Part shown: piece after piece, positions 2,820 through 42,101 of the stretch | How the letters are laid out: every line of letters begins with the position of its first letter | Position numbering within the stretch: position 1 is the first letter of the stretch | DNA from: Schmidtea nova | Taxonomy: Eukaryota | Assembly (NCBI GenBank): GCA_044892505.1 | Contig: CM097884.1 | Span: forward strand, 11,346,001 to 11,410,000 | Length of the DNA stretch: 64,000 nt | Reading direction: 5' to 3' | The notes under the pieces: generated by a model | Told to the model about the DNA's origin: nothing | Seen by the model: the letters and a program-made list of their open reading frames with translations, nothing else | Databases searched by the model: none | Translations under genes and position numbers: made by a program

Positions 2820-3190
2820 TAAATATGAATGAAGTTACGAATTTCGAAATCCAGCTGAAGAAACTTAATCACGGGAAAAATGGTCATACATTGAAATAAG
2901 ACTGTCACTATTAAATATTGTTTGGAGAACTATGTATTGCATTGTAATGATAGAGAAAGCTATCAGCAATTTCAAAGTGTTAATCTTTTTGTTATACGAT
3001 AAATATTAATGAAGTTACGAATTTCCGAATTCTACTGAAGAAATTCAACATCAGAAAAAAGGTTAACTTTGAAATAAGGCTGTCCCTCTTACATATTATT
3101 TTGAGAACGATGTATTTCATTGTATCGACAGAGAAAGCTACCAGCAATTTAGAAGTGTTAATCTTTTTGTTATACGATAAATATTACCGG
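2820..3190. repeat. Diverged ~180-bp tandem duplication
   Basis: aatgaagttacgaatttc...gagaaagcta(t/c)cagcaattt...gtgttaatctttttgttatacgataaatatt occurs twice. Confidence 0.8.
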
Positions 3191-12500: not shown

Positions 12501-13654
12501 TGATTATAATTCACTTCGACAAAATATTGGTTTTGATATAGCTAACTCAACAAAGACCTCTGAGATAATAATTAACCCCTAACAGTTCCTAAGTGAACCC
12601 CGAAACCAAAATCACCCCTCCCAAAATCGACCATCAACGCTACCTAGTGCTTGAAGCATAATTCAAACTGCCAGATAATCATTAGATATACTAAAAATCG
12701 GTGGAATACAAAAATTTTCATTTAAAGAAAAACATACATGAATAATATATATTTTATTGTGGTAAATTATATTAAAGAAGAAAACTCGCGAGCTTGAACT
12801 TTATTTTAGTCCAAGAAAAATCTTCAACAACAAATTCTCAAATTTGAGTTTCGTTTTTCCACCAGGCACTCAATAGAAATTCATAGACATCGAAATGTGA
12901 GAGCATTATTACGAGAAAGGCATTGTTCGCCTGGGATTTTTCTTTGAGAAGTGTGAGAGGTCACGGTTAATCTATGAATTCTTCTTGAGGTATCTGACTT
13001 ATGAAATTTCATGATATTTTAGTTATTAAACTTCAGTTAAGATCCATGCAAACTAAAAACTACCAAGTGATAAAACATTTTCTTTTAAAATAAAATTCCA
13101 TTTCCAAAAATGATCATTATCGTTATTAAACTGTTAAATTCCACGAAAAATAAAAACTACCAAATGACAAAACATTTTCTTTTAGAATAAAATTCCATTT
13201 CAAAAAAATTCAGATTCGATTATAGCATATTGCGAGTTTTGAAAATAAATCAGAATATTTTCTTTTGTTTTCGGATGCGCTGGTTGCCATGCTAGATAAA
13301 ACAAGTCTGTATTGCATTGGGCTCATAACTTGTTTAACAGGTTCCCTGTTTTTCTGAATAAAACCTGGTCGAATATCAAACGCCAAGTTCGTCCTTCTGG
13401 CGTGGAAAATATTATTTTCTAAAAACGATCAGATGAGAGTTGCCTAAAAAACCAAAATGTAAAACTTACGATAAAATCTTGGAAATTGATTTGTAATACA
13501 AATTTTGTATTCCCTTCAAAGATAAATCAATAATTGTCTAAATTGGAAATTGAATTCCATACTCCAAATCCACCAATCACAAGTGATGATTTCTTGTATT
13601 TTCACCTATATAGTTGACAGTGATTGAGGATTTCTACCAATACCTTTAACCTGG

Positions 13655-14212
13655 GTGGTGGAGATCTTGGTGGTAGAGCTTGAGGAAATACACAAGTTAT
13701 TGCTCGAAAATGCAAGGCACAATAAGAAGATCGACGCACGTTTGGCCGAACTGGAAGCGAAAGGATTGTCCAACACAGACGCACTCCAGCTGATGACCAG
13801 CCGAATGGAGAGATTTCGGGCCCGCTGTCGCGAAATGAAAGCGACATGGTCCAACAAAGAAACAGTAGGCCGATTAAAAAAGCAAAATCAACTACTTATT
13901 CAACAAGCCGCCGAAGACGCAATGAGATTGCGGGCGTGTCGTGTCTCAATGCGAGAGCAGGAGCTCGTGAATGAGAAACTAAGGGTAGACAGTGGCATCA
14001 TCTCGGCCATACTACCGAAATCTCAGCCTCCACCTCAGGAATTGTTCCCGGTGAGAGTGGAGGAAGAAATCGCAGCAGCAGTAGCTCCGACCAAGCCAAA
14101 GCGATGGAGGCCAAGTAAAGGAGCAAGAGCCAGGAATAAGCGTCGCCAAGAAGCGTCGCCAAGAAGCGCGAGTGCTAGGCCAGTTGAGAGTAGAGGCCTC
14201 GAAAATCATTGA
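13655..14212 (+). CDS. ~185-aa coiled-coil protein with Arg/Lys-rich tail; related to ORF 43537-44097; probably TE (LTR)-borne; start codon uncertain
   Basis: GC-rich open frame in AT-rich context; MKATWSNKETV vs IKTTWFNPERV; AATAAA at 14258; 13-bp duplication at 14141-14166 shifts the tail frame. Confidence 0.55.
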   Translation: MVEILVVELEEIHKLLLENARHNKKIDARLAELEAKGLSNTDALQLMTSRMERFRARCREMKATWSNKETVGRLKKQNQLLIQQAAEDAMRLRACRVSMREQELVNEKLRVDSGIISAILPKSQPPPQELFPVRVEEEIAAAVAPTKPKRWRPSKGARARNKRRQEASPRSASARPVESRGLENH

Positions 14213-14447
14213 TTTCAACATTGATTTGACCAGTACACACATTTGATTTGATCCTATAATAAATGTTGTTTTATGTTACAATTATAAGTTTTCAATTATG
14301 TTTTTTTTTGTTTGTTTGAATGAGGTTACAGATGAAAATAAAATAGATCAAATAAATTAGTTGATGAATAAATAAATCACGGTTTAGCGAAAATATTCAA
14401 ATGGAGATCTTGTGTTAAAAATCCACAGCGATAGAGCGTTTAATTTA

Positions 14448-14684
14448 AAGGGACAAAAATGGGCAATAAACCTTCTATCGGTAGCCCTTGGACCCAGGAG
14501 ATATTCGGTCAATCATAGTTTCGTATTGACGACGCTCACTGATTGCGAATACCCACCCATTTGTAGCATTACCAACGTTACTTAGTGGCGGGCAACAAGA
14601 TGGTTATTTCAATGTTTTGTATGTTGAGTTGTTGATACGAGCCATGGTAACGTCAAGGTCATATTGACGATCAACAACCCACCA
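14448..14684 (+). repeat. ~235-bp conserved dispersed non-coding repeat, copy a
   Basis: AAGGGACAAAAATGGGC...GGACCCAGGAGAT...TTGACGATCAACAAC(C/A)CACCA recurs at 42891-43118 (+) and 48970-49205 (-). Confidence 0.9.
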
Positions 14685-14899
14685 TATAAAAATTTGGGGG
14701 CTCAGCCGGGATTTAGTTTGCTTTGTTTGGGAAAAACAAAAATCAACAGAAATGATTTTACGTGGGAATTTATTAATGTTTTTGCGTTAGAAAGATAAAA
14801 ATATTTAAAAGAAAAACGAGATTTAGTAAAAGTTTTTTTTAAAAAATCGATAAACATTTGAATATTTTCGACGAAAACGGCAAAAATTTATGTTTGATT

Positions 14900-15121
14900 A
14901 TTGATATTATTTATATTACTATTATTATTATCACAACGATATTTATTTTATACCAGTATGAGTATTATTATTAAGATTATAATTATAATCAGTATTGATA
15001 TTGGTACGATTATTATTATTATCATTATTGTTATTGTTATTATTATTATTATTATTACGTTTACCATCATTATCATGATTACGACTATTATTATTATTGT
15101 CATTATTATTATTTGATAATA

Positions 15122-15160
<39 letters not shown>

Positions 15161-15200
15161 GGTAAGATTATGATTAGTATTATGATTGGAATCGCGAATA
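14900..15200. repeat. Degenerate (ATT)n low-complexity tract
   Basis: Direct inspection; a similar tract lies at 15961-16030. Confidence 0.9.
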
Positions 15201-15827
15201 GTATTTTAGACGAGATTTAAATTGAAAAATAGGAAAAATCGAGAAATTTTAAACAGAATCACCGCGGAAATGATAAAATTGAAAGCCAAAACGCGATTTT
15301 TAAGCCCCAGGAGCAGTCAATGATCGAAAATGAAAATAAATAGCAACTTTAGAGCGTAGAATAGGGGTCTCCAATACAAACAAACGGCAAATATAACAGA
15401 AGATAAAAAGTTGAGCCGGAGTGGGTTAAAAGTGTATAAAAATCGCGGGTAAAAGAGTCAAAAGATCAAACCGCGACTAATGAGTCCCACGAATAGCCGA
15501 TAATCGGAAATGTTATCAAGTAACGTCAATAGAGCGTAGAAAATGAGTACGCAGTCCAGGCAAGTGAAAAATATGGTAAAAGATAAAACGCGACACTGGT
15601 ATCGACGAAAAGTCTAGAAAATCGCCGCTAAGAAACCAGGAAATTTGGATAAAATTACTGAATTTTAACCTGGAAATATCCATGACTTTATAAATATTGG
15701 AATTAGTAGTATCACCATTTCAACAATAACAGCAGCAATTTAGCAAATAATATCAAAATAAAACTCACTTATTATATTTTTATTATAATTATTACGTAAT
15801 AATATATAAGAAATATATTGGTTAAAT

Positions 15828-15960
15828 NNNNNNNNNNNNNNNNNNNNNNNNNNNNNNNNNNNNNNNNNNNNNNNNNNNNNNNNNNNNNNNNNNNNNNNNN
15901 NNNNNNNNNNNNNNNNNNNNNNNNNNNNNNNNNNNNNNNNNNNNNNNNNNNNNNNNNNNN
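15828..15960. other. Assembly gap (N run)
   Basis: Run of N. Confidence 1.
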
Positions 15961-16030: not shown

Positions 16031-16115
16031 AATTATTGCTGACGATATTGGCGTTATGTTGGTTGATCTAGATTCTAGATCAACCAACATAACGCCAATA
16101 TCGTCAGCAATAATT
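16031..16115. repeat. Perfect 85-bp palindrome (42-bp arms, 1-nt spacer)
   Basis: 16031-16072 is the exact reverse complement of 16074-16115. Confidence 0.95.
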
Positions 16116-16158: not shown

Positions 16159-16674
16159 CTATAAGGTATTGAATGATGGAATTTTTTGTCTTATTTCCCA
16201 ACACAAAATATGGATCCCTTTTATTATTTCATTATTTTGTGTTAGTAATGGCTGATTCAACTTTACTTCCAATTTTCCAATGATATTCAATACGTTATGC
16301 GTCATTGATTTAATATTTTTTGTTGTTGGCTTTATTTTCGCCTTTTCCAGTCTCGTTAAAAGACTTGCCGATACTATACTGTGACTTGAGCCTGAATCCA
16401 ATAACGCTTCTACTTTTCGTTCATTAAACTGTATGGCTACTCTGGGTTGCTTTCCTCCTAATTCTATTGTCATCAATGCGTAATTACATGGTAACCCCAG
16501 CATGTTCTTTCTTTCAATTTCGGCATTTGATGGTTCAATCTTTTCTAGTTCAATTTGAATCTCATCAACTGGCTTCATTTCTCTCAAGTTTTCACTTGGG
16601 TATATTGGAGCTGTTGGTATAAATGTCGGTGTGTACCATTTAGAAAGAGTATCAATTCTGGTTAGTTTTGGCAT
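16159..16674 (-). pseudogene. Element C retropepsin (aspartic protease), downstream of env
   Basis: RVAIQFNERKVEALLDSGSSHSIVS...IIGKLEVKL; same frame as the env tail ORF (16822-17040), separated by one TAA. Confidence 0.9.
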
Positions 16675-16821
16675 TAATTCAAGAAAGACCCTGGATTCGG
16701 GTTCTATTCTCCTTTTTATTATGCTCCTTCGAAAAGACTCTTGCTCTGATCTACCGCCATTGTTCTCATTATTATGGCCATTATTTCTCTCATCGTAGTC
16801 GCATAGTAATTCTTCACTTTT

Positions 16822-18659
16822 TTAATCATTTCTCAATTGTGCTCGTACATTTTCTATTTCTTTATATTGATGATTTGTGATGAAAAATCGAGCCAAAAAT
16901 GGAATACAGCCAATAATCATTTTCCATGACCATCCGGAAATTGTATATATTCTATGAGCTGATAATACTTGCGACATTATTACCTTTACCGTTACTGCAA
17001 TTACATAAATGCCAATTAAACCTGCACATGCTTGTCCCAAAAAACATAAATTTACCCCAAATCTTTTCCATTGTTTTATAAGTAGCTCTTTTAAAATGAT
17101 CGGGTGTTAGCAAATATTCGTAATTAACTTTTCCTTCTCTATTCAGCAATATCGTGTCAATCATTTCTGAAATCACCCGTTCCTTTTTTGACGGAAATAA
17201 CAAATTTCTCTGGGCTTCTTCAATGTTTTCGCTGGCATACAGCCCATTTGTGCCATTTTATTCATTGATGTAAAATTTATTAAATATTCAAAATTCGTCA
17301 ATTCCAATTTGTCCGGTGTTCTTACTCCTCGGTAATCTGGTAGCACTATCCACGAATCTTGTGCTAAGCGATATAATGGAGCTAATAATCGATTACATTG
17401 TAAAGTTTTTGTTTAACTTGTTCCTCCAGCAATATTCGGGTTATAGGTTCCATAAATCGTAGTTTCCCGCCAACACTTACTGGCAATTCATTTGTACATT
17501 TCTCATATTTTGCGATTTTTACTGTAATTTCTTTGCATCGGTAACTGTATAGCGCTTCTCCAAAGATTCTGGCAAATACACCATTTTCTGATATTACCAT
17601 GGGTGCTACTAAATTTGGGTTTGTAATCGCCATCGCCATTCGATTTCGAAATATTTCTTTATTCAATTTACAATCGTTCAAGATCATTTTTCTATATATG
17701 TTCTCCATGGTATTTTGGCTAAAATGAAATAAATAATCAATTTTATTATTAAAATAATGAGTTAGTTTGATATCATCCCTGTTGATTCTCGTTTTCGCTT
17801 CATGTACAATCGTTTTTGTCAGATATATATCCTTTGTAATTCGTTACATAGACTGTTTGACCATATTTGCTCGTAATCTCTTTTTTAATAAAGCGCATGC
17901 TGTTCGTTGGCAAGGTTGACATTAAAACCGTTGCCGTTTGTCTCGTCCAAACTGGAGGTGATCTGAATGTGTTATTCGGTTTTTAAATTACGTTAAAACT
18001 GTCTGGTCTCTCCTTAAACTGCTCTCCGGTTAATTCCTTGAAATTCATTGATTTTAAATGAGCTAAGTTACATATATTGGTTTTAACATCGTAAACAAGA
18101 ATTGATCCTCCCGTGTGACAACTAGTTTGTTTCATGTTACAAAATGGATGAGTTTGTAGTTTTCCGGTATCATCATCAAAAGATCCTTCAAACATTCTCA
18201 ATTCTGTTAAGTATTCCTCTATTACCACTGTTTGTTTAATTACTTTCACATTTATTCACCTTCACAGTCACCATCTGATTTCATCACTCCCTTCACAACC
18301 AACGTTTCTCGAATTTGATGATTCAGTTTCGCTTTTAATCGAATTTCAGGACTGATTTTTAATTCTCCCGTTTGAAAAGCTGTTAAGCAATTTTCTGGCA
18401 ATACATCCACCGGTCGTGGAATGGCGTGCATTTTGATTAATGACGTATGGCTCTATTTACCACAGAAGAATACAAAAGTAGTTCGTTTCACAATGCATTC
18501 TCTAACTTTGGTACGCTGTAAATCTGACTCTTGATACACATGGTATTTTACTTCGTTTTCAATCTTTAATTTTCGAGGGTATGCGTTAGGGCCCTCTGAC
18601 ATGTCAACCACTGAGTAAACTTTCCCCATTTCTGTTTTTGAGCAATTGTATGCAACTAA
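16822..18659 (-). pseudogene. env: Element C envelope glycoprotein, chuvirus/herpes gB-like (class III fusogen), with stops and frameshifts
   Basis: AYNCS...YQESDLQRTKVRECIVKRTTFVFFCGK*SHTS; DGDCEG; DCKLNKEIFRNRMAMAITNP; GEALYSYRCKEITVKI...CTNELPVS...FMEPITRIL; IWGKFMFFG + GLIGIYVIAVTVKVI (TM) + IYTISGWS; same motif order as I recall for chuvirus-type G proteins. Confidence 0.85.
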
Positions 18660-20459
18660 GGACGTCGTTTGCGTAATAACTGCACATAGAATAATCATCA
18701 TAAACATTACCCAAGGGAATATCATCGTTTTACTCAGTTTTAAACTTACTCTCTCGTTCAATTGCCTTTGAAGTGAATACTCATCTTCTGTTTTCTTTCT
18801 TTTCTTTATTATAGATAAATTTAATGCTTTCCACCCTCCAAGCTCTCTTAGCCAATTAATTAAAGACTCATTTAATAGTTGAGCCACAATGTCAATTAAA
18901 TTATCAAGCTTGTCTGACTTTGTAAATGCGTGAATACCGATCTCTGAAACAACGTAGGTTATGATTGTTAAAACTATTTCTTTATCAATCCCATTTTTGA
19001 TCACATCTTCTATTACTTCGTATTTACAAAATTTATCCTCTTTGCCAAATTTCCGCACTACTTCTGGAAGTCTGATTTTCACTTCTTCTACTATTCCTTT
19101 CAATTCCTCTTCCGTTTCTGTCTTTATTTTTAGAATTGGATATACGATTTTAACTAAATTTCTTATTACATTACTTGTTTCGTCAACTTCCTGCTCTAAT
19201 TTTATTAAATTTTTCTTCATCTCATAAAATGTTCTAGGTTTCGTATTCTCATTTTTTATTTCTTCTTTTTCAATATTCGTCTCTTCGATAATTGTCGTTT
19301 CTGCTGTCTGAGCATTTTTATTAGTCCCCTTTTCACCATCAACATCAGTAACTATTTCAATTTCGCTTTCCTTTATTTGTTCTGTTTGCCCATCTGTATC
19401 TGAAAATTCAACTTTGTCAAGCATTTTCGAATTAAATTCTTCATTTGCTATTATTCGATTTATTAAATACCCTTGGCTTCCATTAGTGCTTAAATACCCA
19501 TATTCATCCAATTCCTGTGGCACGTATCCACAGTCATATAAATATTCACCGTCATCAAGTTCTTCACCTTTATATCTCAACAATATAATTCCATTTTTAC
19601 CTAACATTTCCGCAGCTCTTTTACGTACTTTTCGAACTTTTGTACACCAGTGTTCCTCTACATACTCCGCTTTCCCAATATCTTCATATTCTATTGCAAT
19701 TGTTAACAAATTTACCTCAACTCTATCTTTTCTAAGCTCTTTACCCAATTTTCTCATTATTCTCTTTAAACATTTTCTATATCCCGTTCTTCTAAACAAA
19801 TAAGGTCGTATCACATTAACAAGTTCTAATTTCTCTTCTTGGCTAAATTCAGATTCCTCAATTAATTTTACTATCTCATTAATTTCATTTTCGTCACCAA
19901 TATATAAAACATCAGATAGCTCCCTTACTTTTTCCATCGGTTCATTTTTTATAATTTCACAGTTACTCATCATACTGGCTATTTGTAATTCATTTTTATT
20001 TCCTCGTATAAAACCACAGTCTATTAAATATGCATCGTTTTTTAAATCTCTATTCTTAAACTTTAATTTGACTACCCAGCCTTCATATTTCTCTCTTAGT
20101 CTCTTTTTAAAATCTTTTGCACAATGATAGGCTTCATAACGACAAGTAATTACATTTTTATCATTTTCATTAACAACATCAATAAAAATAAAATCTAACC
20201 ACTTATTTTCCCGAAAAGATTTTCCAAATTTTCTCATCAATTCTTTAATTTCATCTCTATTTGTTACATTTATTTGATAATAATTAGCACACAAATTAAT
20301 CACGCCTTTCAATTTTCTCATACTCAGCGACATTTGACTCAGGTTTTTAATCGATACCAATATTTTAGATGATTCTTCCACACTAGCTTCTAGTAATTTC
20401 TCAAGTCTTTTCATCATCAATGTAGCTTTTTCACTTTCTAAATCTTCTGTTGTACTCAC
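18453..20459 (-). CDS. Element C 668-aa ORF: two (helical + ubiquitin-like) repeats, acidic linker, Bcl-2-like domain, TM/signal peptide, env N-terminus
   Basis: Ubl-like LKFKNRDLKNDAYLIDCGF and LRYKGEELDDGEYLYDCGY; BH2-like LLNESLINWLRELGGWKAL; hydrophobic MIFPWVMFMMIILCAVITQTTS; then env AYNC. Confidence 0.75.
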   Translation of the reverse strand: MSTTEDLESEKATLMMKRLEKLLEASVEESSKILVSIKNLSQMSLSMRKLKGVINLCANYYQINVTNRDEIKELMRKFGKSFRENKWLDFIFIDVVNENDKNVITCRYEAYHCAKDFKKRLREKYEGWVVKLKFKNRDLKNDAYLIDCGFIRGNKNELQIASMMSNCEIIKNEPMEKVRELSDVLYIGDENEINEIVKLIEESEFSQEEKLELVNVIRPYLFRRTGYRKCLKRIMRKLGKELRKDRVEVNLLTIAIEYEDIGKAEYVEEHWCTKVRKVRKRAAEMLGKNGIILLRYKGEELDDGEYLYDCGYVPQELDEYGYLSTNGSQGYLINRIIANEEFNSKMLDKVEFSDTDGQTEQIKESEIEIVTDVDGEKGTNKNAQTAETTIIEETNIEKEEIKNENTKPRTFYEMKKNLIKLEQEVDETSNVIRNLVKIVYPILKIKTETEEELKGIVEEVKIRLPEVVRKFGKEDKFCKYEVIEDVIKNGIDKEIVLTIITYVVSEIGIHAFTKSDKLDNLIDIVAQLLNESLINWLRELGGWKALNLSIIKKRKKTEDEYSLQRQLNERVSLKLSKTMIFPWVMFMMIILCAVITQTTSLVAYNCSKTEMGKVYSVVDMSEGPNAYPRKLKIENEVKYHVYQESDLQRTKVRECIVKRTTFVFFCGK

Positions 20460-20589
20460 AATTTTCGTTTCAGTTTCTTACATGTCTTGCTGCGATCCAT
20501 ACATCATGTGATTATCCAATTCATCATCGGATTCAAACTTGGACATTAGACGATCAAACGTCGACCCTTTTATTTCACTTGATCTTCAA

Positions 20590-21854
20590 TATTTTCGTTG
20601 AAATCATCTGATTGTACATAAGCAACATTGCCTGTTTTCATTTTATCATTTTGGAATCTAATTGATTTTTTCAATATAGGTTTCTGAAATTTGTCGACAT
20701 TTCTCGGGTATGATCTAGCCATGTGTCCATAGCCTCTACAGGAATGGCATTGAATTTGACCTTGAAGGTTCGCTCTATCTCTTTATGGGGATGGTGAAGT
20801 TGATGAAAACCTCGATCTAGCAAAACAATTCCGTGAGACATGTCCATTTCTTCCACAATTTTAGCATTGTACATTATCATTATTTCGCTGATCCTTAATA
20901 TTCATTTTATTAAAACTTTTCTCACCGTTACCTTTCATCCACTGCGGCCACATTCGTTTTGGGCTTCGTTGAACATTATTTTTAGACCAGCATTGAGTGC
21001 TGTTATGTCCCATCCTTTGACAATAATCACACTGGATTGGAGTTGGACTTTTTGGAGATCTATTTTTGAGATGATGTCCTATCCGTTGACAATGGCTGCA
21101 TTGGAATGGCCTCTTCTTTTCATCAATTTGAACATTTGTTAATTTATTTGGCTCAAATCTTTGGTGATAGACTAATTGATTGCTGCAGCCGATTGTTTCT
21201 GACTGGAGTTATGGATCTTTCTCTGGGTTCATTTATGATGGCAAACGATTCTGATTTTGGCTGTGAGCTTTTCAAATTCAACTCAATTTTCATCGCCTTT
21301 TTGATCAATTCATCAAAGTTATTGAAGTCCACATAACATAATGCCTTTTTGATCTCCTTTTTGACTCCCGTTAAGAACTGGTCTTGTAACAATTCCTTCA
21401 CCTGCTTTGCCACTTCAATCTGTTCCGGTTTTACTTCGAATGCTTTCTCTGTAAGAGTTGTCAAGTGGTACGCAAATTTACTTACCGATTCATCTGATTT
21501 TTGCACTCGGTTATAGAACTTGTGCCGCATTATTCGTTTTATATCCCCTCCAATTAGTTTCGCGGCTAAGGCATTTTTCAATTTCATCCAGTCACTTGCA
21601 ATTGTTCTTTTGTCAATTTGTTGCCAGGCTTCTCTTGCTGCTCCCTTTAAATATAGTGGCAGCCTTTGCACCAATGTCGCTTGGCTCCATCCGTAGGCTG
21701 TGGCATACATGTAGTAATCCGCCAAAAAATCAACGAATTCCACCGGATCGCCTCCGTATTGGTTTACTGACAGTTTTTGGCAGCTAGCATAGTCATTGCC
21801 ATTTCCGTTGCTGGTAGACATGGGCGTGTCATCATGATTGTTTGAGTTACTCAT
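20590..21854 (-). pseudogene. gag: Element C gag (capsid plus four CCHC-type zinc knuckles), frameshifted near 21155
   Basis: YGGDPVEFVDFLADY...QRLPLYLKGAAREAW; CSHCQRIGH, CDYCQRMGHNSTQC, C*NCGRNGHVSRNC, CHSCRGYGH. Confidence 0.85.
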
Positions 21855-22337
21855 TTTGGTTTCTGGTTGTCTGCTACTTCGTAATTCGTAAAATGGTCGG
21901 TTTGGTACAACTTTTACTCTTCTAAATTTTAATATATCAATTATAAAATTTACCTTTTATTTAAATTTTCAACAGTAAAAATCTTTCCACAAGTTTCCAA
22001 CAAACTTTTTCTAATCCTTGATTCAATTTACCGACTCTGCTCACGTCGGAATTTAACAAAATTTTCTCGATAAATTAATTTTCAGTTTTCAACAATAAGC
22101 CACCCACTTTTGATCAATTTCACAATTTCAAAACTTTATAAATTTGACAAATAACTTTGAATAAATTTCACCGACTCTGTTCACGTCGGAATTTTACTGC
22201 AACTTTCAATTTCTTTTCGACAATAAATATCTAATTTCTTTTTGGAAATGCTTCACCGACTTTAAACACGTCGGAATTTATCAATAATTTTCTTTTAATT
22301 CTTTATTATTTTTTTTCAACAAATTTTCACCGACTCT

Positions 22338-22356
22338 GATCACGTCGGGCTCACCA
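22338..22356 (-). promoter_or_regulatory. Element C primer-binding site, tRNA-Trp-like
   Basis: TGGTGAGCCCGACGTGATC located 4 nt after the LTR-terminal CA; tRNA-Trp PBS consensus is TGGTGACCCCGACGTGAT. Confidence 0.8.
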
Positions 22357-22360
22357 AATA

Positions 22361-22934
22361 TGTTGGGTTATTAACGAGCAGTCGGTAATATCTGACTCCT
22401 GTGTTCTCTTTTAATCACGAAAATAAATGAAACCCAACACAATAACTTTATATATATTTTCAAATGAACAACAACACTTTTTATCACAGAAAGTTACTAA
22501 TGCTCTGCACTCTTCCGCGTGAGGGTAGAACACCCAATGGGATATCTCCCTCTCTGGCACGCAAGAAGATTAAATTCAACTTCTATCTTTGGTTTCTCTA
22601 CACGTTCCTCAGAATAGCTTTTAGTTGTTGTTTATTCTTTCTGTTTATTCTTTCTGTTTATTTCTTTCTGTTTATTCTTTCTGTTTATTCTTGAAATTTA
22701 TCTTTGACCACTTTGGCGTGTGCCGAAATTTTGACTTGCCTTTTAGAGTGATTTTTCGATTGTTTCTGTCACACCTTAATGAATCTGTCAATTACAAAAT
22801 AAAGTGGAAGTTGCCGCTAAGTGGATTTGCGGCTTCTTTCCCCGGGGCACCCTTAAATTTTTCCATTAACTTTAATTAATCGATTTGCAGATGCCACGGG
22901 TTTCCCATATCGCTCGGGTTTCCTACTAGCTCAG
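22361..22934 (-). repeat. Element C 5' LTR, PBS-proximal half
   Basis: Ends ...AACCCAACA next to the PBS; contains a 13-bp AATAAA-bearing array and the start of a 17-bp minisatellite that continues at 42232. Confidence 0.65.
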
Positions 22935-23064
22935 TGTCACGACAATAAATAAGACACGTTTTTAAAATATGTATTTTTATCAAAAACTGCTTATTTAAAC
23001 AAAAATGTTTAAAGATGAATAAATCGATTTAGAATTAATTAGTAATTAATTCTAAATTGTCACA
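22935..23064 (-). repeat. Element B 3' LTR
   Basis: 130 bp, TGT...ACA, adjacent to the PPT. Confidence 0.9.
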
Positions 23065-23069
23065 TCCGT

Positions 23070-24400
23070 CCCTATCCTCGACTTGGGTTTCTTCAAGTCG
23101 ACTGAGGTAATGGAGTTTGTGTTCTCGGTACCCTTCTTGTATTGGATTTTGAATTCGTAGTCTTGGAGTAGGAGGCTCCATCTTGAGATTTTACTGTTCC
23201 TGATTTTTAGACCCGCGAGCCATTTTAAGGGCTTATGATCCGTTTGGATTACGAATTTGCGACCGTATAGGTAATAACGGAATTGCTCCAGTGCGTATAC
23301 TATCGTGTACAGTTCTTTCTCGATTGTTGACCATTGGATCTGGGGTTCCGAAAGTTTCTTGGATTGGAACGTGATCGGGTGTTCCTTTATCTCTATAATT
23401 TGGGATAAAACAGCTCCTATGACTTGGTCGGACGCGTCGGTTTTCACGTAAAATGTCTTCTTGTAATCTGCCGCTATGAGTACTGGCGCTTCTGTCAGTG
23501 ATCTCTTCAGGTCACTAAAGGCTTTTTCACTTTGTTTGTCCCATTTTATTCGGTTTGAGGCTCCATTCTTTAGTTTCTCGTTCAGATAATCGGTTTTCTT
23601 TGATAGATCTTTGATATGGCTTCGGTAGTAGTTGATCATACCGAGGAATCGTCGTAAATCCTTCTTTGTCTTTGGTTTGGATGCTCTTTTGATTGCATCA
23701 ATTTTTTCCGATAGCGGTGACACCTCTCCGTTTCCGACTAGTTTCCCTAGGAACTCGACATCATTAGTTTGCATTTCTTTGGATTTAGGGTTAGATTAGC
23801 TCTATGTAGGGTCTCTAAAACTGTCTGTAGTATTCGGATATGTTTCTCGGCTATTGAGGATTAGATAATGATAACTGACGTTTCTGATACGTTTTGGAAT
23901 AGTTTATCCATCATTCTTTGGTAGTAAGCTGGAGCATTTTTGAATCCGAAACTCATCCTTGTGAATTGGAATAATCCGAATGGTGTTGTAAACGCACTTT
24001 TTGGTCTGTCTTTATCTTTTATCGGTATCTGATAGTATCCTTTCGTCAGGTCTATCGTGTTGATGATCTTCGCGTTTCCTACTGAATTGATTACCTTTTC
24101 GATTTCTGGCATCGGATAACTATCGAATATTGTGGCCGAGTTTTTCTTCCTATAGTCCTGAACTAACCTCAGATTATCATTTTTCTTTACGAAAAGAGCT
24201 GGACTTGCCCATGGGCTATTTGACTTTTCGACGATTCCTAGCTTGAGTAGGCTTTGAATTTCTTCGTTCATATTATCTCTAAGCGAATGCGGAAGCTGGT
24301 ATGGTCTTTGATTGATTGGTGTTTCGTTCGTGAGATTTATGTTGAATTCTGCTTCGTTAGTCAGGCCTGGTAGAGAAGAAAACACGGTGCGGTATTCGTC
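23070..24400 (-). pseudogene. pol: Element B RT and RNase H; the YxDD region appears deleted
   Basis: SPWASPALFVKK..LRLVQDYRK, IDLTKGYYQI, FTRMSFGFKNAP; FYVKTDASD, WSTIEKEL, IQTDHKPL; reads ETSVIII* where YxDD is expected. Confidence 0.9.
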
Positions 24401-24524
24401 GACAAGTTGTTTGTATGGTCTTGACGCTCGCTTCCGGGTTTATTGTAACAGTTTCGGTTTCGGTCCTGCCTTCGTCGGCGATCAGCGCTTGTATGATTGC
24501 TTCTTCTCGGTGATGCCACTTCAG

Positions 24525-25767
24525 TTAAAGGTTTACATGAAAGGCCCGCAGTCGTTTTCTAGTTTGGCTGGTGTCTACCATATAGTTGACATCACTTATT
24601 TTGTTGACTATTCTGTATAGTCCGTGCCATCCCGATAGTATTTTTGTCGAAGATGTCGGTAAGAGGACGAGAACTTCCTTGCCTATGTCGAAAGTTGTGG
24701 TTCTTGAGTTCTTGTCATACCATTTCTTTGATGTATCTTTAGCGGCGTTGTCTCTTTGTTGTTTAATCTCCATTACTTGGTTCAGTTTATCGGTTAGGTC
24801 GAGTACAATGTATTGATTGATGTTTCTCTTTCCAGGATATTCTGCATTTGTCTATATAACATCGATAAGTGCCCTTGGACCTGGTGGCCGTACAGTAGCT
24901 CAAAGGGGCTGAATCCGATATTCTCGTGCGAACTCGACCTGTAGGCAAAGTAGAGATATAGCAAGTACGTGTCCCAATCCTTCCCTTTGGAATCGGTTAG
25001 TAATCTTCGGAATCTTCGTTGAATCTTTCACATATCAAGTTAGTTTGCGGGTGATATTTGGAGGTTTTGATGTTCGTTGTTCCTAGGAGCTGGTATACCT
25101 GTTTCATAACCTCACTCATGAAATTTGATCCTTGGTCTGTTAGAATTTCGGACGGAATACCCATTCGGCAGAAAAAATGTCACATTGCTTTTGAGACCGT
25201 TTCTGCCCTCATATCCGGTATCGCTATCACCTCTGGGTATCTGGTTGCGTGGTCTATAATTGTCAAAATAAATCTGTTTCGATCGTTTGATAAATTTAAC
25301 GGCCCCACTATATCCATGGTGACTCTGAAAAAGGGCTCGCCAATCGTGGGGGTTCTTATCAAAGGTGCTCTATGTGCTTTTTCTATTCGTCTTGATTTCT
25401 GGCACTGTGGACAGCTCTGGCACCATCCTTGGACGTCTTCTATGATGTTTGGCCAAAAGAAGAATTTTCTCAGCTTGTCTCTGGTCTTCTCATTTCCCAG
25501 ATGTCCTGATAGTGGGATTTCGTGGGCTATTTTCAGTAGTTTTTCTCGATATTGTTTGGGAATCACAGGCTTTTTTGTTGCGTTTTCTGTGTACATCAGT
25601 ATACCATTTTCTATCGACAGTTTGGTACTTTGGCATTCTTTTTTTGCTTCGTCGAAGTACTTGTACAGGAATTCGTCATCCAGTTGAGATTTGTGTAGGT
25701 TGATCATATTTATGTCGAAGATAGATTGATCATCTTCGGAGACTGTTTTCCCTTTACTTCCTTCCAT
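24525..25767 (-). pseudogene. pol: Element B integrase, located upstream of RT
   Basis: HEIPLSGHLG...CQSCPQC (HHCC), TMDIVGPL, IIDHATRYPE; GPY/F-like WHGLYRIVNKISDVNY. Confidence 0.9.
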
Positions 25768-25773
25768 GTATTT

Positions 25774-26506
25774 CTAGTAATTTGGTGCGTTGAGTGTATC
25801 GTTGTCGAATATGTTCTTTGGGTTTGGGTTTAGTATTTGTTCTTCTTTATCGGCTACTATTCTCGTCGCTGAATGATTTATATTGTTGGATCTGGTGATT
25901 GCCTCGCAAAATTCGTCTAGATCGTTTCCTAGTAATACTCTGTGTTTACTACTCATGATCAGTGCTTCTATCGTGACCGGCACATTCTTGACTGAGATAT
26001 TTAATCTGGCGATTGGGGCTTCGGTTGAGTTCCCGTAGGCCAACACGACATTCACGGTCTTGTCTACGTATTTTGACTGTTTCACGAACATCGTATGAAC
26101 AACCGTCGATGACGCTCCCGTGTCTCTGAACATTTTTATCGGCTTGCCTGCTATGATTCCGTTAAATATATATATTTCTTAGGAATACTTACGTGTTTCA
26201 GCTCGACTGCATTTGCGTTTCGTTTGGAACATTCTCTAGCTAGATGTGCTGCACTTCCACATATGTAGCATTGTCTTGGTCCTCTGTTTGGGTCTGGGAA
26301 TTGCCTGGGTCTCCACTGTGGGGTTTTCGGAGTATCAGCTTCGAACTTGTGTGCGCTTTCGTATCTTTCGGCCACTAACACCATCTTTAGGACAACTGAA
26401 TTGTCACTTTCTTCAAGCCATGTCTTGATCCGTTCATTTATGTTTCGCATAAACTGTTCTTCTATGATAAGGTTTTTGATGTCCTGCATCTCTTTTGCGT
26501 CCCTTG
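25774..26506 (-). pseudogene. gag: Element B gag C-terminus (CCHC knuckle) and protease
   Basis: CYICGSAAHLAREC; FRDTGASSTVV...VLLGND. Confidence 0.9.
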
Positions 26507-28169
26507 TGTAATGTTCTGTGGACACCCGTTTGAATACAAAATTCTGACATAAATAGATGTTTATGAGTGTTTTATGTACCTCTGAAATTGTGTGAATCGG
26601 AGTTGTAAAAAGGTTGTTAGATATGTGAAAATTTTATTATTTGGTTATTTTATTGTACATTGTTTAGGATTATGTGAATTGGGGTTGTAGAAAGAATTAT
26701 TAAATATGTAAAAATTTTATTATTTGGATATTTTATTGTGCATTGTTTAAAAGAGTTTGTTAAGCGGTTAACCCGCGCAGAAATTAATAGAAATAAATAT
26801 TTAAAAGAAATTTCTTAAAATTTCTTACTAATTGATCAAATGATTTTCATTATGATAAAATTAATATATATTTTTGAATTTATCCACAGTATCTTTACAA
26901 ACAAATTGTTGCAAGCCGATATTAGACTGACAGACATCGCCAGGAATATTGAATCTGTTAATGCTACGGCAACTTATAATGTTGAATTTGTCAATATGAA
27001 GTGGAAAATAAACGTCTTTTATTTTCAAATACTTTCTAGATGTCAGGCCATTGAAAGTTTCTGCTAACGGTAAATGTTTGGAAGTGCCTATCAATTCCTA
27101 TGGATACATCACTACGGAGTCCAAGGAAGCAATGTTGGGATATTTCCGCATCAATGATAAATATGGAATCAGCAGATTAGTTGAATCGCATGATAAGCGC
27201 TATCAACCGATTTACATCGCTAACGTGCCAGTGATTATTCTGCCTGAAATCACAGAAATAGTCGCCTTAGAAATGAAAGGATTTATGGAACTATCTAAAA
27301 CTTTAAAACTAAATATTTTTAATAAACATTGCTATGCCAAAGTTGTTATTGTGCTCTACTTTTATGTCAATCTTAGTGATAACATTGAATTTGTTACTGA
27401 GAGAGAGAAATTTATAAAGATCGAAATATGTGTACAGAATATACTTCTCCGTTTAAACTTGATATTTAATCAACTCCCGTGGGAAATAAGGATCGAGTTC
27501 TCGGTAGATAACTTGCCTATTTTGACTCCAAAAATGTGCTTGAGTGACTTTAAAGGTCCCCGTTATCCGGTTTCAGTGAATAGTTATGGCAATTTGAGTT
27601 TAAGTGCCCGGGAATTGCTCGAACTTTTTAAAAGTGATTCTTCTAGTAGATGTTTTAAGTTGGAAGGCCAAATGCCGTTCACCGGTATGGTTTTAATGTT
27701 GAATGTTACTTTCTATAGATCTTTGACAATGATCGTCCAACATTATTACATCGACATTATTTTCGGATTGTTTGTATTCATTGTCTGTACAATGTGCATT
27801 TTTGAAGGTTCTTATATGATGAACTTATTAGTCTCAAGAAAATTACGATTTTATTGTCAATTGATGTCCTATCAAAATCCGAAAGTGAATGTAGTTAGAG
27901 TATGTACTGTACTATCAAATCCATGTGTGTATCATTTTTACATGGTTATTCAATCTTATGAGATCCTCCTTGGGTCATTACCCGATGGTTTCGATAGAGC
28001 TTTGGTTCGACCCGGAATCCTCCTTTCCCTGTTATCCGACAAAACTAAAGTATATTTATATTTTTTTGTAAATTTATGTAAATTAATCAGCGAGGGAACA
28101 AAAATAAAATTGATGAATCGGCAACCACGCCAAAAATCTGCATACCTTGGTGTGGTTTCCGGTTCATCA
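26507..28169 (+). repeat. Element A LTR1 (1663 bp)
   Basis: TGTAATG...CATCA, followed by ATT and the PBS; two ~80-bp direct repeats near its 5' end. Confidence 0.95.
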
Positions 28170-29582
28170 ATTTGGTGTCAGAAGTTGCTCCCTCCCTCCA
28201 GTAACATTTATATTATCCTAAATAACACTTTATTTTATTCTATTCCCACATTTATTATTTTTCCTATTCCTTCCCAAATGAAGGCGCTACAATCCTGGGC
28301 GGGACTAACTGAATTGACGGTACATGGAAACCACATCATAAGAACAACCGGGTTTTTAAACATTAAGAGGAAACAAGTATCACACAAGTTCCTCTTCCGG
28401 TGTCCTAACAAGACTTCCGGATGGCAACCTCTGTGTCCGACGAAGTCACATTTGTCCTCAATGTCTTCATTGCTCCTAGCAATTGGCGTCCCAAGGGAAA
28501 CACACCGCCACTTCTTTGTCAAGAAGTCCCAATCGGCGACACATACCCCAGTCATCACCACCTATTTCGACATTATTCCCCGTTTGACTGGAGGAATGCA
28601 AACTGATGAGGCTAACACAGACTGTGAAATCAGTCACATACAACCGCCAACACAACAAACAACACCAGTTATTACACCAATACCGTTTTTCCTAGACGGC
28701 GTTGGCTCCCCACAAAAGTGGTTCCTGGCACTAGAAGTGACTCCAACCTTTCTACCCACTCAATCTCAAGGGCAGAAGTTTGGTGCACTCTTGTCCATGC
28801 TTCCAAGCACTATTTACACCACATTGTCCACCGCCATTGCAACCGCAGCCACGGCAAGTGAGCCCTACAACTCACTGAAATCGGCAGTACTAGACGCCTA
28901 CCGACCAAAATTAGATCATTTATATGAGGCTTGGTTCCGAAATCAACCTCTCAATAATGAAAGACCAAGCGCCTTCCTCAAGCGAGCCAAGGAACAACTC
29001 GAGAGGATCCAGGCTGGTCTTACCAAAGACGACGCTCTACTCCGTAGGTTCTTTCTAAAAGCACTACCTACATCAGCACAGTCCATTCTTGCCGTTGTTC
29101 CAAACACAACATTGGAAGAACTGGCCAAAATTGCCGACAAGATCGTGGAAATCAACACGTCACCTGTTACTCCATCACCGGTAGTCGCAACAACAAGCCT
29201 CCCACAAGCCGAATTAGGAGCACTAGTCAGCGCCATAGCTGCTTTAACATCGAGGATGGACAATTTAGACGCAAGTCTACACACCCGAGGTCGAAGTCGA
29301 ACAGACAGTCGTGACAACAATCAAAAACGACATCGGTCCACATCTGCACGAGGGCTCATATGCTCCTACCATAAGACGTACGGAGACAAAGCCCAACATT
29401 GCTATGTCGGTTGTAGGTGGAACAACCGACTTCCAACATGCCTGCCTCGCAACCTTTGCATCTATCACGCAATATTTAAGACCGAGGCCAAAACATGCTT
29501 GGAAGGCTGCCGTTTCCATACTGGTAATCACAATACCAGTAACGTTAATCAAAATTCGTATAATAAGCCTTCGGAAAACTGA
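26840..29582 (+). pseudogene. gag: Copy 1 LTR-ORF/Gag fusion frame, frameshifted near 27025; Gag proper (28596-29582) is intact
   Basis: ORFs 26840-27067 and 27051-29582; ATTTT vs ATTA relative to LTR2. Confidence 0.85.
28173..28185 (+). promoter_or_regulatory. Element A PBS, tRNA-Leu type (second copy at 34818-34830)
   Basis: TGGTGTCAGAAGT is complementary to the tRNA-Leu 3' end ...ACTTCTGACACCA. Confidence 0.85.
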
Positions 29583-29679
29583 AAACGCCATCGAACTCCC
29601 CCACAGTTTTTGATGGCGATCCCATAACCTGTGGACTCTTTTCTGTTCCCGCCGTACCTCATTCCCAGAACTCTAATGA

Positions 29680-32673
29680 AGTCGATGCCCCATTCACTTC
29701 GTTATCGATAGCGGTTCCATCATCTCATTCCTACCTAATCGGTTCGGAATTGATAATAATCAAAAAAGGTCCTTCCGGACAGCCAGTGGCGAAAACTTTT
29801 CCACTATTGGAACAAAAAACTTAATATTCCAAATTCCTGGTCTATCCAAAACTTTTTCATGGACATTCCAAGTCGCCGAGGTGATTCATCCACTCTTAGG
29901 TGCCGATTTTCTTGATGCCGAAGGTTTACTCCCTGATTGCAGAGAACGCAAATTAATCCTCTCACAACACACACCTAGAGCTCAAGTTCTTGACCACCTC
30001 TGTAGCGACGCTCTCAATGTCTTACCCGCCACACCTTGCTATATACAACAATTACTAAAGACGTTCCCAAACGTCGAAAAGAGATCAAACATTCACAAAC
30101 AAACTCCCTCTTTTCTACACGTCATAGTCACCAATAACGGTATGCCTAACAGAGAACGTATGCGACCACTCGCGCCCGAGAAGCTCACACTTGTCAAGGA
30201 AGAATTCAATAAGCTACTCGAAGCCGGTACTATACACCGATCGAATTCCCCTTGGGCATCACCCATCCATGTGGTTACAAAAAAAGACGGATCTATCCGC
30301 GCCTGTGGTGACTACAGACGCCTCAACAAAGTCACTATACATGACTCTTACCCCATGCCACTTATATCAGACGTTCTTTCGAGATTACCTGAAGCTACAA
30401 TCTTCTCCACTCTAGATCTAAAAAAGGCTTACCACCAAATCCCGGTAGCACCAGAAGACATCCCGAAGACCGCTGTTATCACCCCTTTTGGCTTGTTTGA
30501 ATACAAATACATGCCATTCGGTCTCCGAAACGCAGCTCAAACGTTCCAGCGACACATTGACAATATTTTAGGAGACAAGAAATACATGGTGGCATACATC
30601 GATGACATCCTCATCGGGTCCAAAGATGCAACGGAACATCTTGAACATATCAAAGAAGTGTTCAGGTTATTGCACAATAACAATTTGCAAATTAACTTGG
30701 ACAAATGTTCCTTCTTTCAATCGGAAATAAAATTCCTTGGACACCTTGTATCGACGTCCGGAGTAAGACCACTTCCAGAACGCCTAGATACAATCCGCAA
30801 TTTTTCACGACCAAATACAGTTTCCCAAATGCGCAGCTTCTTAGGAACTGTTAATTTCTGTCACCGATTTATTCCAAGGATATCCGAGGTCACCGCACCT
30901 CTTTCCGCTCTCTGTAGCGGCCCAAAACACTCTCTCCTACCGTGGAATGACGAACTGGAAAGAGCTTTTCAATCCGTCAAGGACGCAATGTCGACAGCAC
31001 AATCTTTGTCATATATAAAGAACAATCTACCCCTATTTTTAACTACCGATGCGTCCAACATTGGCATTGCTGGAGTTCTCGAACAGAACAACACAGGGTG
31101 TCAAGAGAAAATCGAATTCTTTTCACGCAAATTAACCACACAAGAACAACGCTATTCCACGTTTGACCGCGAATTATTAGCGATTTATGAATCAGTCCGC
31201 CACTTCCGCTACTTACTCGAAGGCAGATCTTTTTCTATTCAGACGGACCATAAACCGCTAGTTCACATGATGGAAATGAAGACCCCTTCACCAAGACAGG
31301 GACGTCAAATCAGCTACCTATCAGAATTCGCGTTCACTATCACCCATCTCCCAGGTCGCCAGAATATTGTAGCAGATTATCTATCGCGAAATCTTGTTGC
31401 AACGATCACTACTGAGCCGATCTTCACTGACGACGTTCTCAGGTCTCTACCACCTTCCCCAAAAGACCTGTCATTCTTCAAAAATACAACGGTTTTCGAT
31501 AAAGGCATCTACTACGACAACGCCTTATCTGGAAATATCCGCCCAATTTTGCAAGAAAAGTTAAGGCGCGAAGCTTTCAACCACACCCACAACCTTCACC
31601 ATCCGGGCACGTCTGCAACATACAATCTACTACGTTCTCGTGTCATTTGGCCAAGTATGAGACAAGACGTAAAAGACTGGTGTGAATCTTGCTTAGGATG
31701 CCAACAACACAAAATCCACCGACATACTCGACCACCCTTACATAACTTTCCAATGGGAAACCGTTTTGAAGTGGTGCATGTCGATCTAGTTGGACCTCTT
31801 CCTCCAGACAACGGTTACACACATATATTAACCATGCTGGACAGAAAAACTCGTTTTCCAGTCGCTGTTCCTTTAAAATCCATTTCTGCCTATATTGTAG
31901 CATCGGCGATCATAGAACATTGGATCTCGATATTTGGTGTTCCTCTACATTTCATTACCGATCAAGGACCCCAATTCGAATCCCATCTTTTTAAACAACT
32001 TTCGACACAACTAGGAATTAAACACCTGAGGACTAGTACCTACCACCCACAAACAAACGGAGCTGTCGAGCGGTTTCACCGCACACTCAAGACATCCCTC
32101 CGAATACTTTCTACTTCAAAGAACTGGACAAAGGCCCTACCTTTTGTTCTACTAGGATGGCGCAATGCGCCATCAAAAACAACAGGTTCGTCTCCAGCTC
32201 AACTACTGTTCGGTACTAACGTCATGTTACCAAACGAACTTGTCGAGCTAAACGGCGAACCAACTTTAGAAAATCTAGCGGATGCAAGAAACCATTTCCT
32301 ATCTTTGGACTCAAATCCAAATTTTTCAATGTCAAACACTTACAAACCATATATTCCAAGATCTTTTGATCGCGCAACTCATGTATGGATCCGCTCAATT
32401 GCCGATATCGGCCTAAAACCACGCTACGAAGGACCGTATTCCCTTCTCCAAATACTTGATAACGGCACTGCAAAAGTTTCCATTAATGGAATGGATACAA
32501 TTATAAATCTAGCCCGTCTCAAGCCAGCTTTTGGTTATATGGAAGAAGACCCCAGTCCTACAAATATCACATCGCATGCTGAGACACAAGACTTTACACC
32601 ACCAAATCCTCAAGACCCCATACAAACCCATAATCTGCAGAGGGATAACCCGACCGTCGTTCGCTTACCTTAG
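29680..32673 (+). CDS. pol: Element A copy 1 pol (PR-RT-RH-INT)
   Basis: FVIDSGS, YIDD, LTTDASN, HVDLVGP, ITDQGPQF, VERFHR; frame open from 29680. Confidence 0.95.
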   Translation, partial: SRCPIHFVIDSGSIISFLPNRFGIDNNQKRSFRTASGENFSTIGTKNLIFQIPGLSKTFSWTFQVAEVIHPLLGADFLDAEGLLPDCRERKLILSQHTPRAQVLDHLCSDALNVLPATPCYIQQLLKTFPNVEKRSNIHKQTPSFLHVIVTNNGMPNRERMRPLAPEKLTLVKEEFNKLLEAGTIHRSNSPWASPIHVVTKKDGSIRACGDYRRLNKVTIHDSYPMPLISDVLSRLPEATIFSTLDLKKAYHQIPVAPEDIPKTAVITPFGLFEYKYMPFGLRNAAQTFQRHIDNILGDKKYMVAYIDDILIGSKDATEHLEHIKEVFRLLHNNNLQINLDKCSFFQSEIKFLGHLVSTSGVRPLPERLDTIRNFSRPNTVSQMRSFLGTVNFCHRFIPRISEVTAPLSALCSGPKHSLLPWNDELERAFQSVKDAMSTAQSLSYIKNNLPLFLTTDASNIGIAGVLEQNNTGCQEKIEFFSRKLTTQEQRYSTFDRELLAIYESVRHFRYLLEGRSFSIQTDHKPLVHMMEMKTPSPRQGRQISYLSEFAFTITHLPGRQNIVADYLSRNLVATITTEPIFTDDVLRSLPPSPKDLSFFKNTTVFDKGIYYDNALSGNIRPILQEKLRREAFNHTHNLHHPGTSATYNLLRSRVIWPSMRQDVKDWCESCLGCQQHKIHRHTRPPLHNFPMGNRFEVVHVDLVGPLPPDNGYTHILTMLDRKTRFPVAVPLKSISAYIVASAIIEHWISIFGVPLHFITDQGPQFESHLFKQLSTQLGIKHLRTSTYHPQTNGAVERFHRTLKTSLRILSTSKNWTKALPFVLLGWRNAPSKTTGSSPAQLLFGTNVMLPNELVELNGEPTLENLADARNHFLSLDSNPNFSMSNTYKPYIPRSFDRATHVWIRSIADIGLKPRYEGPYSLLQILDNGTAKVSINGMDTIINLARLKPAFGYMEEDPSPTNITSHAETQDFTPPNPQDPIQTHNLQRDNPTVVRLP

Positions 32674-33080
32674 CAATTTTTATCATCACCGAAATTACTT
32701 CCAATCAAAAATGAAATCACTCCATCCCTCATAACTAATCACCCCACCACTCAGTTACAAATCGAAAACACATCAAACAGCACATTACAACCAATAGCTA
32801 ACCAGAAGCAAATACCAATACAGAGAACAACACAATCATCGCAACCAGATAACACATGGTTTATCCCGGCAACTATATTGGATCAGCAAACTCAATCAAC
32901 TCCTACTTCAAAATATACTCTGAAACCCATCCTAAAATCATCGAATAAGATACCCAAGGCACAACAAATTAAGAAAGTGCGTATAGCAGAATGGCACCGA
33001 ACTAAAAGAATCGGCGAAAACCCAAACTTACCAATCCGCCTATCTAGAACTAACGACTTGTAACCTAGGGCGGGCACCAA

Positions 33081-33120
33081 TACTAACACTTCTAAAATCT
33101 TTTTTTTGTTTTCTTTTAAG
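33081..33120 (+). promoter_or_regulatory. Splice acceptor upstream of PPT/LTR (second copy at 39726-39765)
   Basis: TACTAAC branch point, T-rich tract, first downstream AG at 33119-33120. Confidence 0.7.
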
Positions 33121-33152
33121 AAAAACGCTCCGCGTTACTGGATGGGGGGTAA

Positions 33153-41460: not shown

Positions 41461-41462
41461 AA

Positions 41463-42090: not shown

Positions 42091-42101
42091 AGTGACGCCA
42101 T

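Follow-up and report, generated by a model that had tools for sequence, protein, structure and literature searches.

The locus described here raises a simple question: does an envelope gene (env) lying between gag and an aspartic protease (PR) belong with them to one retrotransposon, or do the parts come from different elements? We analyzed a 64,000-nt stretch of the Schmidtea nova genome (assembly GCA_044892505.1, contig CM097884.1, positions 11,346,001 to 11,410,000; hereafter the window), which carries this arrangement on its minus strand; all coordinates are positions in the window. We found that gag, the accessory region, env and PR belong to one element. The locus is very probably a decayed, 3'-truncated copy of a multicopy Ty3/gypsy long terminal repeat (LTR) retrotransposon of the GAG-ENV-POL kind, near Smed_errantivirus_1, whose intact relatives are read in one frame from gag to integrase, with the stops and frame changes in the window copy likely representing decay.

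First, the open reading frame (ORF) map and the Pfam matches bore out the order gag, accessory region, env and protease that an earlier, sequence-only reading had proposed. The series running from 21854 to ~16255 opens with gag and the zinc knuckles, goes on with a 674-codon ORF and env, and breaks off after the first half of the protease, with 5.6 kb from the gag ATG to PR; reverse transcriptase (RT) and integrase are absent from this copy, in which nothing of pol remains beyond half of PR. The PR ORF matched PF13650 (E 6e-5), PF13975 (positions 2-47 of 92) and PF00077. The stops and frames at both junctions were located exactly where that reading had put them: a TAG at 18455-18453 closes the 674-codon ORF (668 aa from a GTG), whose frame continues into env, and the env-tail ORF and the PR ORF share one frame with a single TAA (16824-16822) between them, the first ATG of the PR ORF following 49 codons in, at 16674. 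The breakage of env, in contrast, had been understated. The single TAG between the 668-aa ORF and env is real, but env as a whole lies in eight pieces separated by two in-frame stops (18455 and 17985) and five frame changes (near 18255, 17830, 17410, 17240 and 17060), and further stops and frame changes occur between gag and the accessory ORF.

Second, the parts occur together in relatives. The 674-aa ORF had 43 matches among 1.84 billion representatives, of which the 26 best and longest were scanned for domains. The env domain was present in 17 of the 26; six of these 17 continued into PR in one chain, and two of the six ran on through RT, RNase H and integrase. Most other relatives stopped inside or at the end of env, and RT or integrase ahead of env was seen in none of the 26. 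Gag, two knuckles, one helical plus ubiquitin-like module, env, PR, RT, RNase H and integrase follow one another in P0045 (3865 aa), a single chain colinear with the window. Its pol was nearest to Ty3 Gag-Pol among PDB structures (E 3e-130), and a Ty3/gypsy pol of PR, RT, RNase H and integrase was seen in P0013, P0037 and P0045, compared with only half of PR in the window copy. The env tail, linker and PR were 36% identical to P0046, which has no break at the place of the window's TAA, and neither an X nor a stop was found in nine long relatives checked. P0045 and P0046 thus agree with the proposal of a single polyprotein with env inside and PR and pol downstream, and contradict env as an independent insertion, the outcome that the sequence-only reading had itself named as speaking against it. 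The window gag was 27-34% identical to the N-termini of P0008, P0010, P0028, P0031 and P0045. Relatives of 1181-3370 aa were also sought with residues 420-674, and none was found among 891 candidates, which is weak evidence.

The env domain was identified by PF24664 (Monjiviricetes_fusion), which matched five of the six env-region ORFs scanned (E 5e-27 to 3e-4), and against a profile built from nine relatives the eight window pieces were colinear over positions 7-636 of 638. When counted by eye against domains I-II of Smed_errantivirus_1 (supplement 2 of PMC13524379), 185 of 242 residues were equal, a total over the four window pieces that overlap these domains (30/35, 52/66, 67/90 and 36/51). 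A class III, gB-type fusogen is consistent with the matches to PF24664 and to Smed_errantivirus_1, whose env was classed as ENV_HSV (PMC13524379); a search of the PDB with the env profile found no gB or other solved fusogen. The earlier label 'chuvirus-like' was not borne out in its narrow sense: PF24664 spans Monjiviricetes, and weak Borna G matches were also present in three relatives. The middle env piece gave 225 pattern matches among metagenome contigs and 10 among viral contigs, none of which was confirmed.

The window copy is dead and heavily decayed. Its stops and frame changes likely represent decay, because the relatives read gag to integrase as a single unbroken protein, and it is predicted to yield at most a short Gag piece. 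It also lacks the intact ORF by which copies were listed in PMC13524379, with env in eight pieces, breaks upstream and a cut inside PR. Contigs from four runs of one study covered the stretch densely (3175-4190 per run, with all 30 bins covered in all four runs), and these other copies differ in length at several frame breaks of the window copy; the differences were tabulated for several breaks, the TAA between env tail and PR not being among them. That TAA might instead be a programmed leaky stop which keeps Pol rarer than Gag and Env, in the manner of gag-pol readthrough. It is in frame and sensibly placed, after the env tail and before PR, and making Gag, Env and Pol strictly 1:1:1 would be wasteful by retroviral standards. 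However, it is one of many in-frame stops and frame changes in this copy, several of them within conserved env; P0046 and seven longer relatives cross the same junction without a stop, and the planarian element Burro is described as one ORF. We consider a leaky stop quite unlikely, and decay the better explanation.

A second possibility is that env or the protease came from a separate insertion, either of a chuvirus-like endogenous viral element or of a second retrotransposon, into a gag-only remnant. The window is indeed a nest of mutually inserted retrotransposons, and the expected downstream pol is missing. On the other hand, the junctions between the parts showed neither a target site nor an LTR boundary, gag, accessory region, env and PR are matched colinearly by single relatives, and the env-PR linker is itself homologous to P0046. 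Both junctions were also bridged by independent contigs, the env-tail/PR stop by X2 record 9, X3 record 17 and X4 record 26, and the accessory/env stop by X3 records 22 and 23. Such an insertion therefore appears highly improbable. The same low probability applies to the idea that a decayed RT-RNase H fragment at 7656-6883, which lies on the same strand and downstream of the truncation, is the element's own pol displaced by later insertions: its longer pieces are 29-36% identical (44-54% only in pieces of 26-27 residues), which is the level of unrelated elements in the window, whereas RT-RNase H is 67-75% identical among three full-length relatives. Pao-type gag and Peptidase_A17 are the markers of BEL/Pao elements. 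A BEL/Pao element with a captured chuvirus glycoprotein can practically be dismissed, since, despite an env in the broad Pfam family of chuvirus glycoproteins and the Pao elements with such glycoproteins outlined in PMC7642597, the gag matches PF03732, the protease is of the A2 type (PF13650/PF13975/PF00077), no Pao-type gag or Peptidase_A17 family was found at E up to 1 in the window ORFs, and the pol of the relatives is Ty3-like.

Table 1. Features of the element and their positions in the 64,000-nt window
Feature	Position	Strand	Details
3' part of 5' LTR	22361..22931	-	terminates in CA at 22361
Primer-binding site, tRNA-Trp-like	22340..22356	-	starts 4 nt after LTR end
5' leader with four CCGAC-N9-GTCGG stem-loops	22031..22348	-	repeat family D18
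Gag capsid part	21153..21956	-	ORF 21956-21156, ATG at 21854; Retrotrans_gag PF03732 E 1.2e-6
Zinc-knuckle (nucleocapsid) region	20555..21208	-	frame differs from neighbours; two in-frame stops
Accessory ORF, stop to stop, 674 codons	20477-18456	-	668 aa from GTG at codon 7
Two tandem modules, each a short helical plus a ubiquitin-like domain	19470..20342	-	inside the 674-codon ORF
Bcl-2-like helical domain with BH2-like WLRELGGW box	18798..19238	-	PF00452 E 0.0017-0.0045, under curated cut-off
First hydrophobic segment, putative internal signal/anchor before env	18672..18728	-	Kyte-Doolittle 19-mer 2.31
Env, Monjiviricetes-type fusion glycoprotein (gB-type in PMC13524379), eight pieces	16849..18713	-	PF24664
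Env-tail ORF	17106-16825	-	then TAA 16824-16822
Second hydrophobic segment, env membrane anchor	16975..17031	-	Kyte-Doolittle 19-mer 2.19
Env-PR linker and N-terminal half of A2-type aspartic protease	16162..16821	-	motif LLDSGSSH; truncated ~16255

The accessory region appeared to contain two kinds of domain, which the sequence-only reading had left unnamed (Table 1). Both ubiquitin-like modules of the window aligned with one and the same module of relatives, among which PF00240 (ubiquitin) was matched by P0021 (E 5e-5), P0010 (E 0.005) and P0008 (E 0.03). The doubling of the module is visible only via the relatives, as a BLASTP self-comparison of the window sequence missed it. In the PDB, the module profile reached ubiquitin-fold chains at E 0.004 at best, ranked behind an unrelated top match. 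PF00452 was matched by six of the eight aligned members, all under the curated cut-off, and the Bcl-2-like profile matched Bcl-xL at E 7e-5. All top 20 Foldseek rows were members of the Bcl-2 family, at values that are not significant (E 0.2-0.6; low-confidence model from 8 sequences), and in a single-sequence search of the PDB two designed helical repeats outranked Bax (E 0.01). Leads from Atlas, all below 0.9, pointed to ubiquitin (0.82) and Bcl-2-like/BID (0.79). When 46 proteins were searched for the Bcl-2-like box, it was also found in P0008 and P0010, neither of which is in the alignment; in both, the ubiquitin-like and Bcl-2-like domains separate gag from env within one frame.

The hydrophobic segments of the polyprotein suggested a membrane topology. 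The first segment is followed by an A-Y/F-D/N-C start of the ectodomain in all eight rows of alignment A1, and the env anchor segment is also present in P0006, P0007, P0009, P0013, P0018, P0027, P0028, P0037 and P0045; the stretch behind the anchor reaches the hydropathy cut-off only in P0018. The four strongest hydrophobic segments of P0045 are two around env and two after integrase, so that segments two and three enclose PR, RT, RNase H and integrase, and P0013 and P0037 repeat this pattern, the fourth segment being weaker in P0013. A topology returning PR and pol to the cytosol after the env anchor, as put forward in the sequence-only reading, agrees with the hydropathy, which fits two likely membrane passes around the ectodomain; with Gag starting on the cytosolic side, alternate passes would put env on the lumenal side and leave the whole of Pol cytosolic. 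After integrase, P0045 (3528-3829), P0013 (2486-2740) and P0037 (2257-2557) each contain a signal-like segment, a beta-rich-looking region without a Pfam match and a membrane anchor, from which we predict that the polyprotein ends in a second surface protein.

On this topology, translation would start in the cytosol with Gag, and the hydrophobic segment ahead of env would act as an internal signal that directs the ectodomain into the lumen of the endoplasmic reticulum. Signal peptidase would cut behind this first segment, and the second would stop transfer and bring PR and the remaining Pol back to the cytosol. The outcome would be two membrane-bound chains in equal amounts, one of Gag with the ubiquitin-like and Bcl-2-like domains on the signal anchor, the other of Env with Pol as its cytosolic tail, and in the particle, as it buds, the protease would release Pol from the Env tail. 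Holding off cell death and handling host ubiquitin pathways may be the roles of the Bcl-2-like and ubiquitin-like domains; a Bcl-2-like domain on the signal anchor could be likened to cellular Bcl-2 proteins, which hang on a C-terminal anchor. A fuller assembly model, which we regard as possible though rather doubtful, is that the env signal anchors both Gag and a working Bcl-2-like protein, that Pol is packaged as a tail of Env and not as a Gag fusion, that clustering of Env activates the protease, and that the signal-plus-anchor module after integrase is a separate receptor-binding surface protein. If true, it would tie replication to the envelope and the secretory pathway, unlike in any studied retrovirus. 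This model was not found in literature searches or in word searches of the main text of PMC13524379, a scope that excludes figures, Grohme 2018 and Sacco 2022.

Several points weigh against the interpretation as a whole. Two relatives, P0009 and P0027, lack PR and stop at the env anchor, and the full-length relatives are just 30-46% identical to the window copy in env. The Ty3/gypsy placement rests on the relatives because the window copy has neither RT nor integrase, and what was read were relatives, with no intact copy of the element's own family among them; the whole stretch was spanned by no contig among those listed for the four runs. As for the accessory region, the Bcl-2 and ubiquitin scores lie below the Pfam cut-offs, and the structure models are poor, with a predicted local distance difference test (pLDDT) value of 46 for the Bcl-2-like region and 35 for the 586-aa accessory region alone. 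Among the 46 proteins searched, the Bcl-2-like box was not found in seven env-bearing proteins with at least 150 residues upstream, including P0045, which makes the box optional in this group. With regard to the topology, the first segment is under the hydropathy cut-off in P0006 and P0007, the passes were derived from Kyte-Doolittle hydropathy, and the cleavage, packaging, budding and anti-apoptotic role are predictions.

Some further observations concern the relatives. P0001, P0002 and P0005 were chimeric with unrelated host domains, likely as gene-model artefacts, and were kept for local identity only. The window env was 71% identical to P0002 (tool-measured), and the knuckle region 66% identical to residues 1-139 of P0005, which extends into the accessory region. 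The knuckles are weak in Pfam in the window, and P0005 has zf-CCHC at E 1.5e-9. Several relatives (P0006, P0007, P0013, P0018 and P0045) have two to four protease-like copies, and P0013 and P0045 also have one after integrase. The deposited record of the env-pol polyprotein P0037 (HBK71150.1) is a hypothetical protein from a metagenome-assembled genome assigned to Flavobacteriaceae; animal DNA that ended up in a bacterial bin is its likely source.

The upstream end of the element was delimited by contigs as well as by sequence. At 22361, 57 contigs of run X2 depart from the window into unlike flanks (agreement 0.44), and in all four runs the summed contig depth was maximal at 22387-22624, just upstream of the LTR end. 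At 22932 a separate gypsy insertion breaks into the LTR; a 17-nt repeat unit is common to both sides of this insertion (22906 and 42243-42294), and the 5' part of the 5' LTR likely continues beyond 42231. The first 12 nt of the primer site pair with the 3' end of tRNA-Trp(CCA) (supplement 1 of PMC13524379) with one mismatch. In the leader, the first stem-loop overlaps the primer site, so that the other three repeat part of it, and two loops contain a 6-nt palindrome. These stem-loops could possibly be packaging or dimer signals; each folds into a 5-bp stem, but shuffled sequences do as well (z -0.7 to -1.4; z 0.36 for the leader as a whole). Downstream, the likeness to the relatives' protease ceases at ~16255, inside PR, in four of the six relatives matching there. 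ATT-rich repeat comes next, then a 42-bp palindrome and, at 15828-15960, an assembly gap; the palindrome, which is perfect, and ATT-rich repeats occupy 16031-16115 and 14895-15207, on either side of the gap and beside the truncation point.

The gypsy insertion just mentioned is a separate element on the minus strand (22932-42231) with the order gag, PR, integrase, RT and RNase H; its integrase ahead of RT is a Gmr1-like order. It has 133-nt LTRs (42231-42099 and 23064-22932) that are 97% alike, and it has inserted into a 17-nt tandem repeat where the LTR region of the env element ends upstream, with a near-perfect 5-nt target duplication. Inside it, on the plus strand (26507-41461), are two 6645-bp gypsy units head to tail, sharing three LTRs of ~1660 bp and 99.8% identical, which represent either a recent LTR retrotransposon array or an assembly duplication. 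Other gypsy pol remnants are nearly complete at 53900-56300 (+) and heavily decayed at 6883-7656 (-). Short, coiled-coil-looking open frames with basic tails are found at 13628-14212 (+), where there is no clear Pfam family, and at 43545-44100 (-), each with a nearby copy of a dispersed 240-bp repeat (14447-14684, 42866-43118 and 48970-49230).

Finally, we compared the element with published systems. The arrangement, called unusual in the sequence-only reading, is not so unusual as to be new: it was described in 2019 (PMC6431247) and surveyed in 2026, including chuvirus-like glycoproteins beside gypsy pol (PMC13524379). The invertebrate precedent for env upstream of pol, about which that reading was uncertain, exists in published flatworm, nematode and bryozoan elements (PMC13524379, PMC6431247). 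Chary and Hayashi (2026, eLife) reported GAG-ENV-POL elements in nematodes, bryozoans and flatworms, which do not form one clade (PMC13524379). Env between gag and pol is common to the window copy, its one-chain relatives and these errantiviruses. Also present are a gypsy-type gag with CCHC knuckles (PF03732 and the likeness to P0005) and an LTR with a tRNA primer-binding site, the 3' LTR having been lost through truncation. In these sequence features, though not in intactness, the element belongs to the flatworm GAG-ENV-POL gypsy elements, and it would work like them. In env it is 76% alike (by eye) to Smed_errantivirus_1, compared with 63.7% between Smed_1 and Smed_2 in the published table (PMC13524379); this level makes it a sister family, or the version of another species, and not one of the counted copies, from which it also differs in being decayed and truncated. 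The similarity by itself points to a planarian or a related flatworm as the likely host. In addition, no primer site is given in that table for its six Schmidtea elements, whereas the window copy shows a tRNA-Trp-like one.

More distant systems share single features. In the non-canonical nematode endogenous retroviruses of Sacco et al. (2022), as cited in PMC13524379, a metavirus likewise has env before pol, an RNA-virus glycoprotein having been captured; they belong to a different host group and are likened here by description, not by sequence. The BEL/Pao elements with a chuvirus-like glycoprotein, as sketched in Dezordi et al. (2020; PMC7642597), have the same broad glycoprotein class but are of another superfamily, the window gag and protease families being of the Ty3/gypsy kind. 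Troyka elements have CG termini, according to PMC12440569, and do not fit.

As a finding the locus is ordinary, since elements of this kind are published and it adds another dead copy. It makes small additions, namely a compact relative with a ubiquitin-like and Bcl-2-like block, a doubled ubiquitin-like module and a tRNA-Trp-like primer site. For the whole family, two questions arise: how the enzymes are packaged when Gag, Env and Pol come in equal amounts from one membrane-threaded chain, and whether host cells are kept alive by the Bcl-2-like domain. The main text of PMC13524379 contains none of the words 'polyprotein', 'Bcl-2' and 'Burro'; the accessory domains of compact elements may already appear in figures or figure supplements of the papers cited here.

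The element can also be compared with planarian Burro, in which gag, Ubi/SUMO-like, BCL2, env, PR and RT follow one another in one frame (Arkhipova and Yushenova, 2019; PMC6431247). Burro and GYPSM1 are giant planarian gypsy elements (Jurka 2007 and Grohme 2018, as summarised in PMC6431247), and Burro1 transcripts rise on smedwi-2 knockdown, as stated in PMC8532177. Burro shares with the window element Retrotrans_gag, CCHC knuckles, Ubi/SUMO-like and BCL2-like domains, an env with similarity to mononegavirus fusion proteins, and PR, all in the same order. The placing of the Ubi/SUMO-like and BCL2-like domains between gag and env in one frame recurs here with scores that are below the curated cut-offs but concordant. 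In contrast, the internal region of Burro reaches 25 kb, and its ORF of 4873 aa includes MATH, BIR, ankyrin and further domains, compared with 5.6 kb from gag to PR in the window, where none of these extra families was found at E up to 1 in the ORFs. Burro also has a dUTPase-like domain between PR and RT (PMC6431247), a region that the truncated window copy no longer contains. The ubiquitin-like module is doubled in the window element, unlike in Burro. The window element shares the Burro domain order but is no giant Burro, and it shows that a ubiquitin-like and Bcl-2-like block ahead of env also occurs outside the giant Burro elements.

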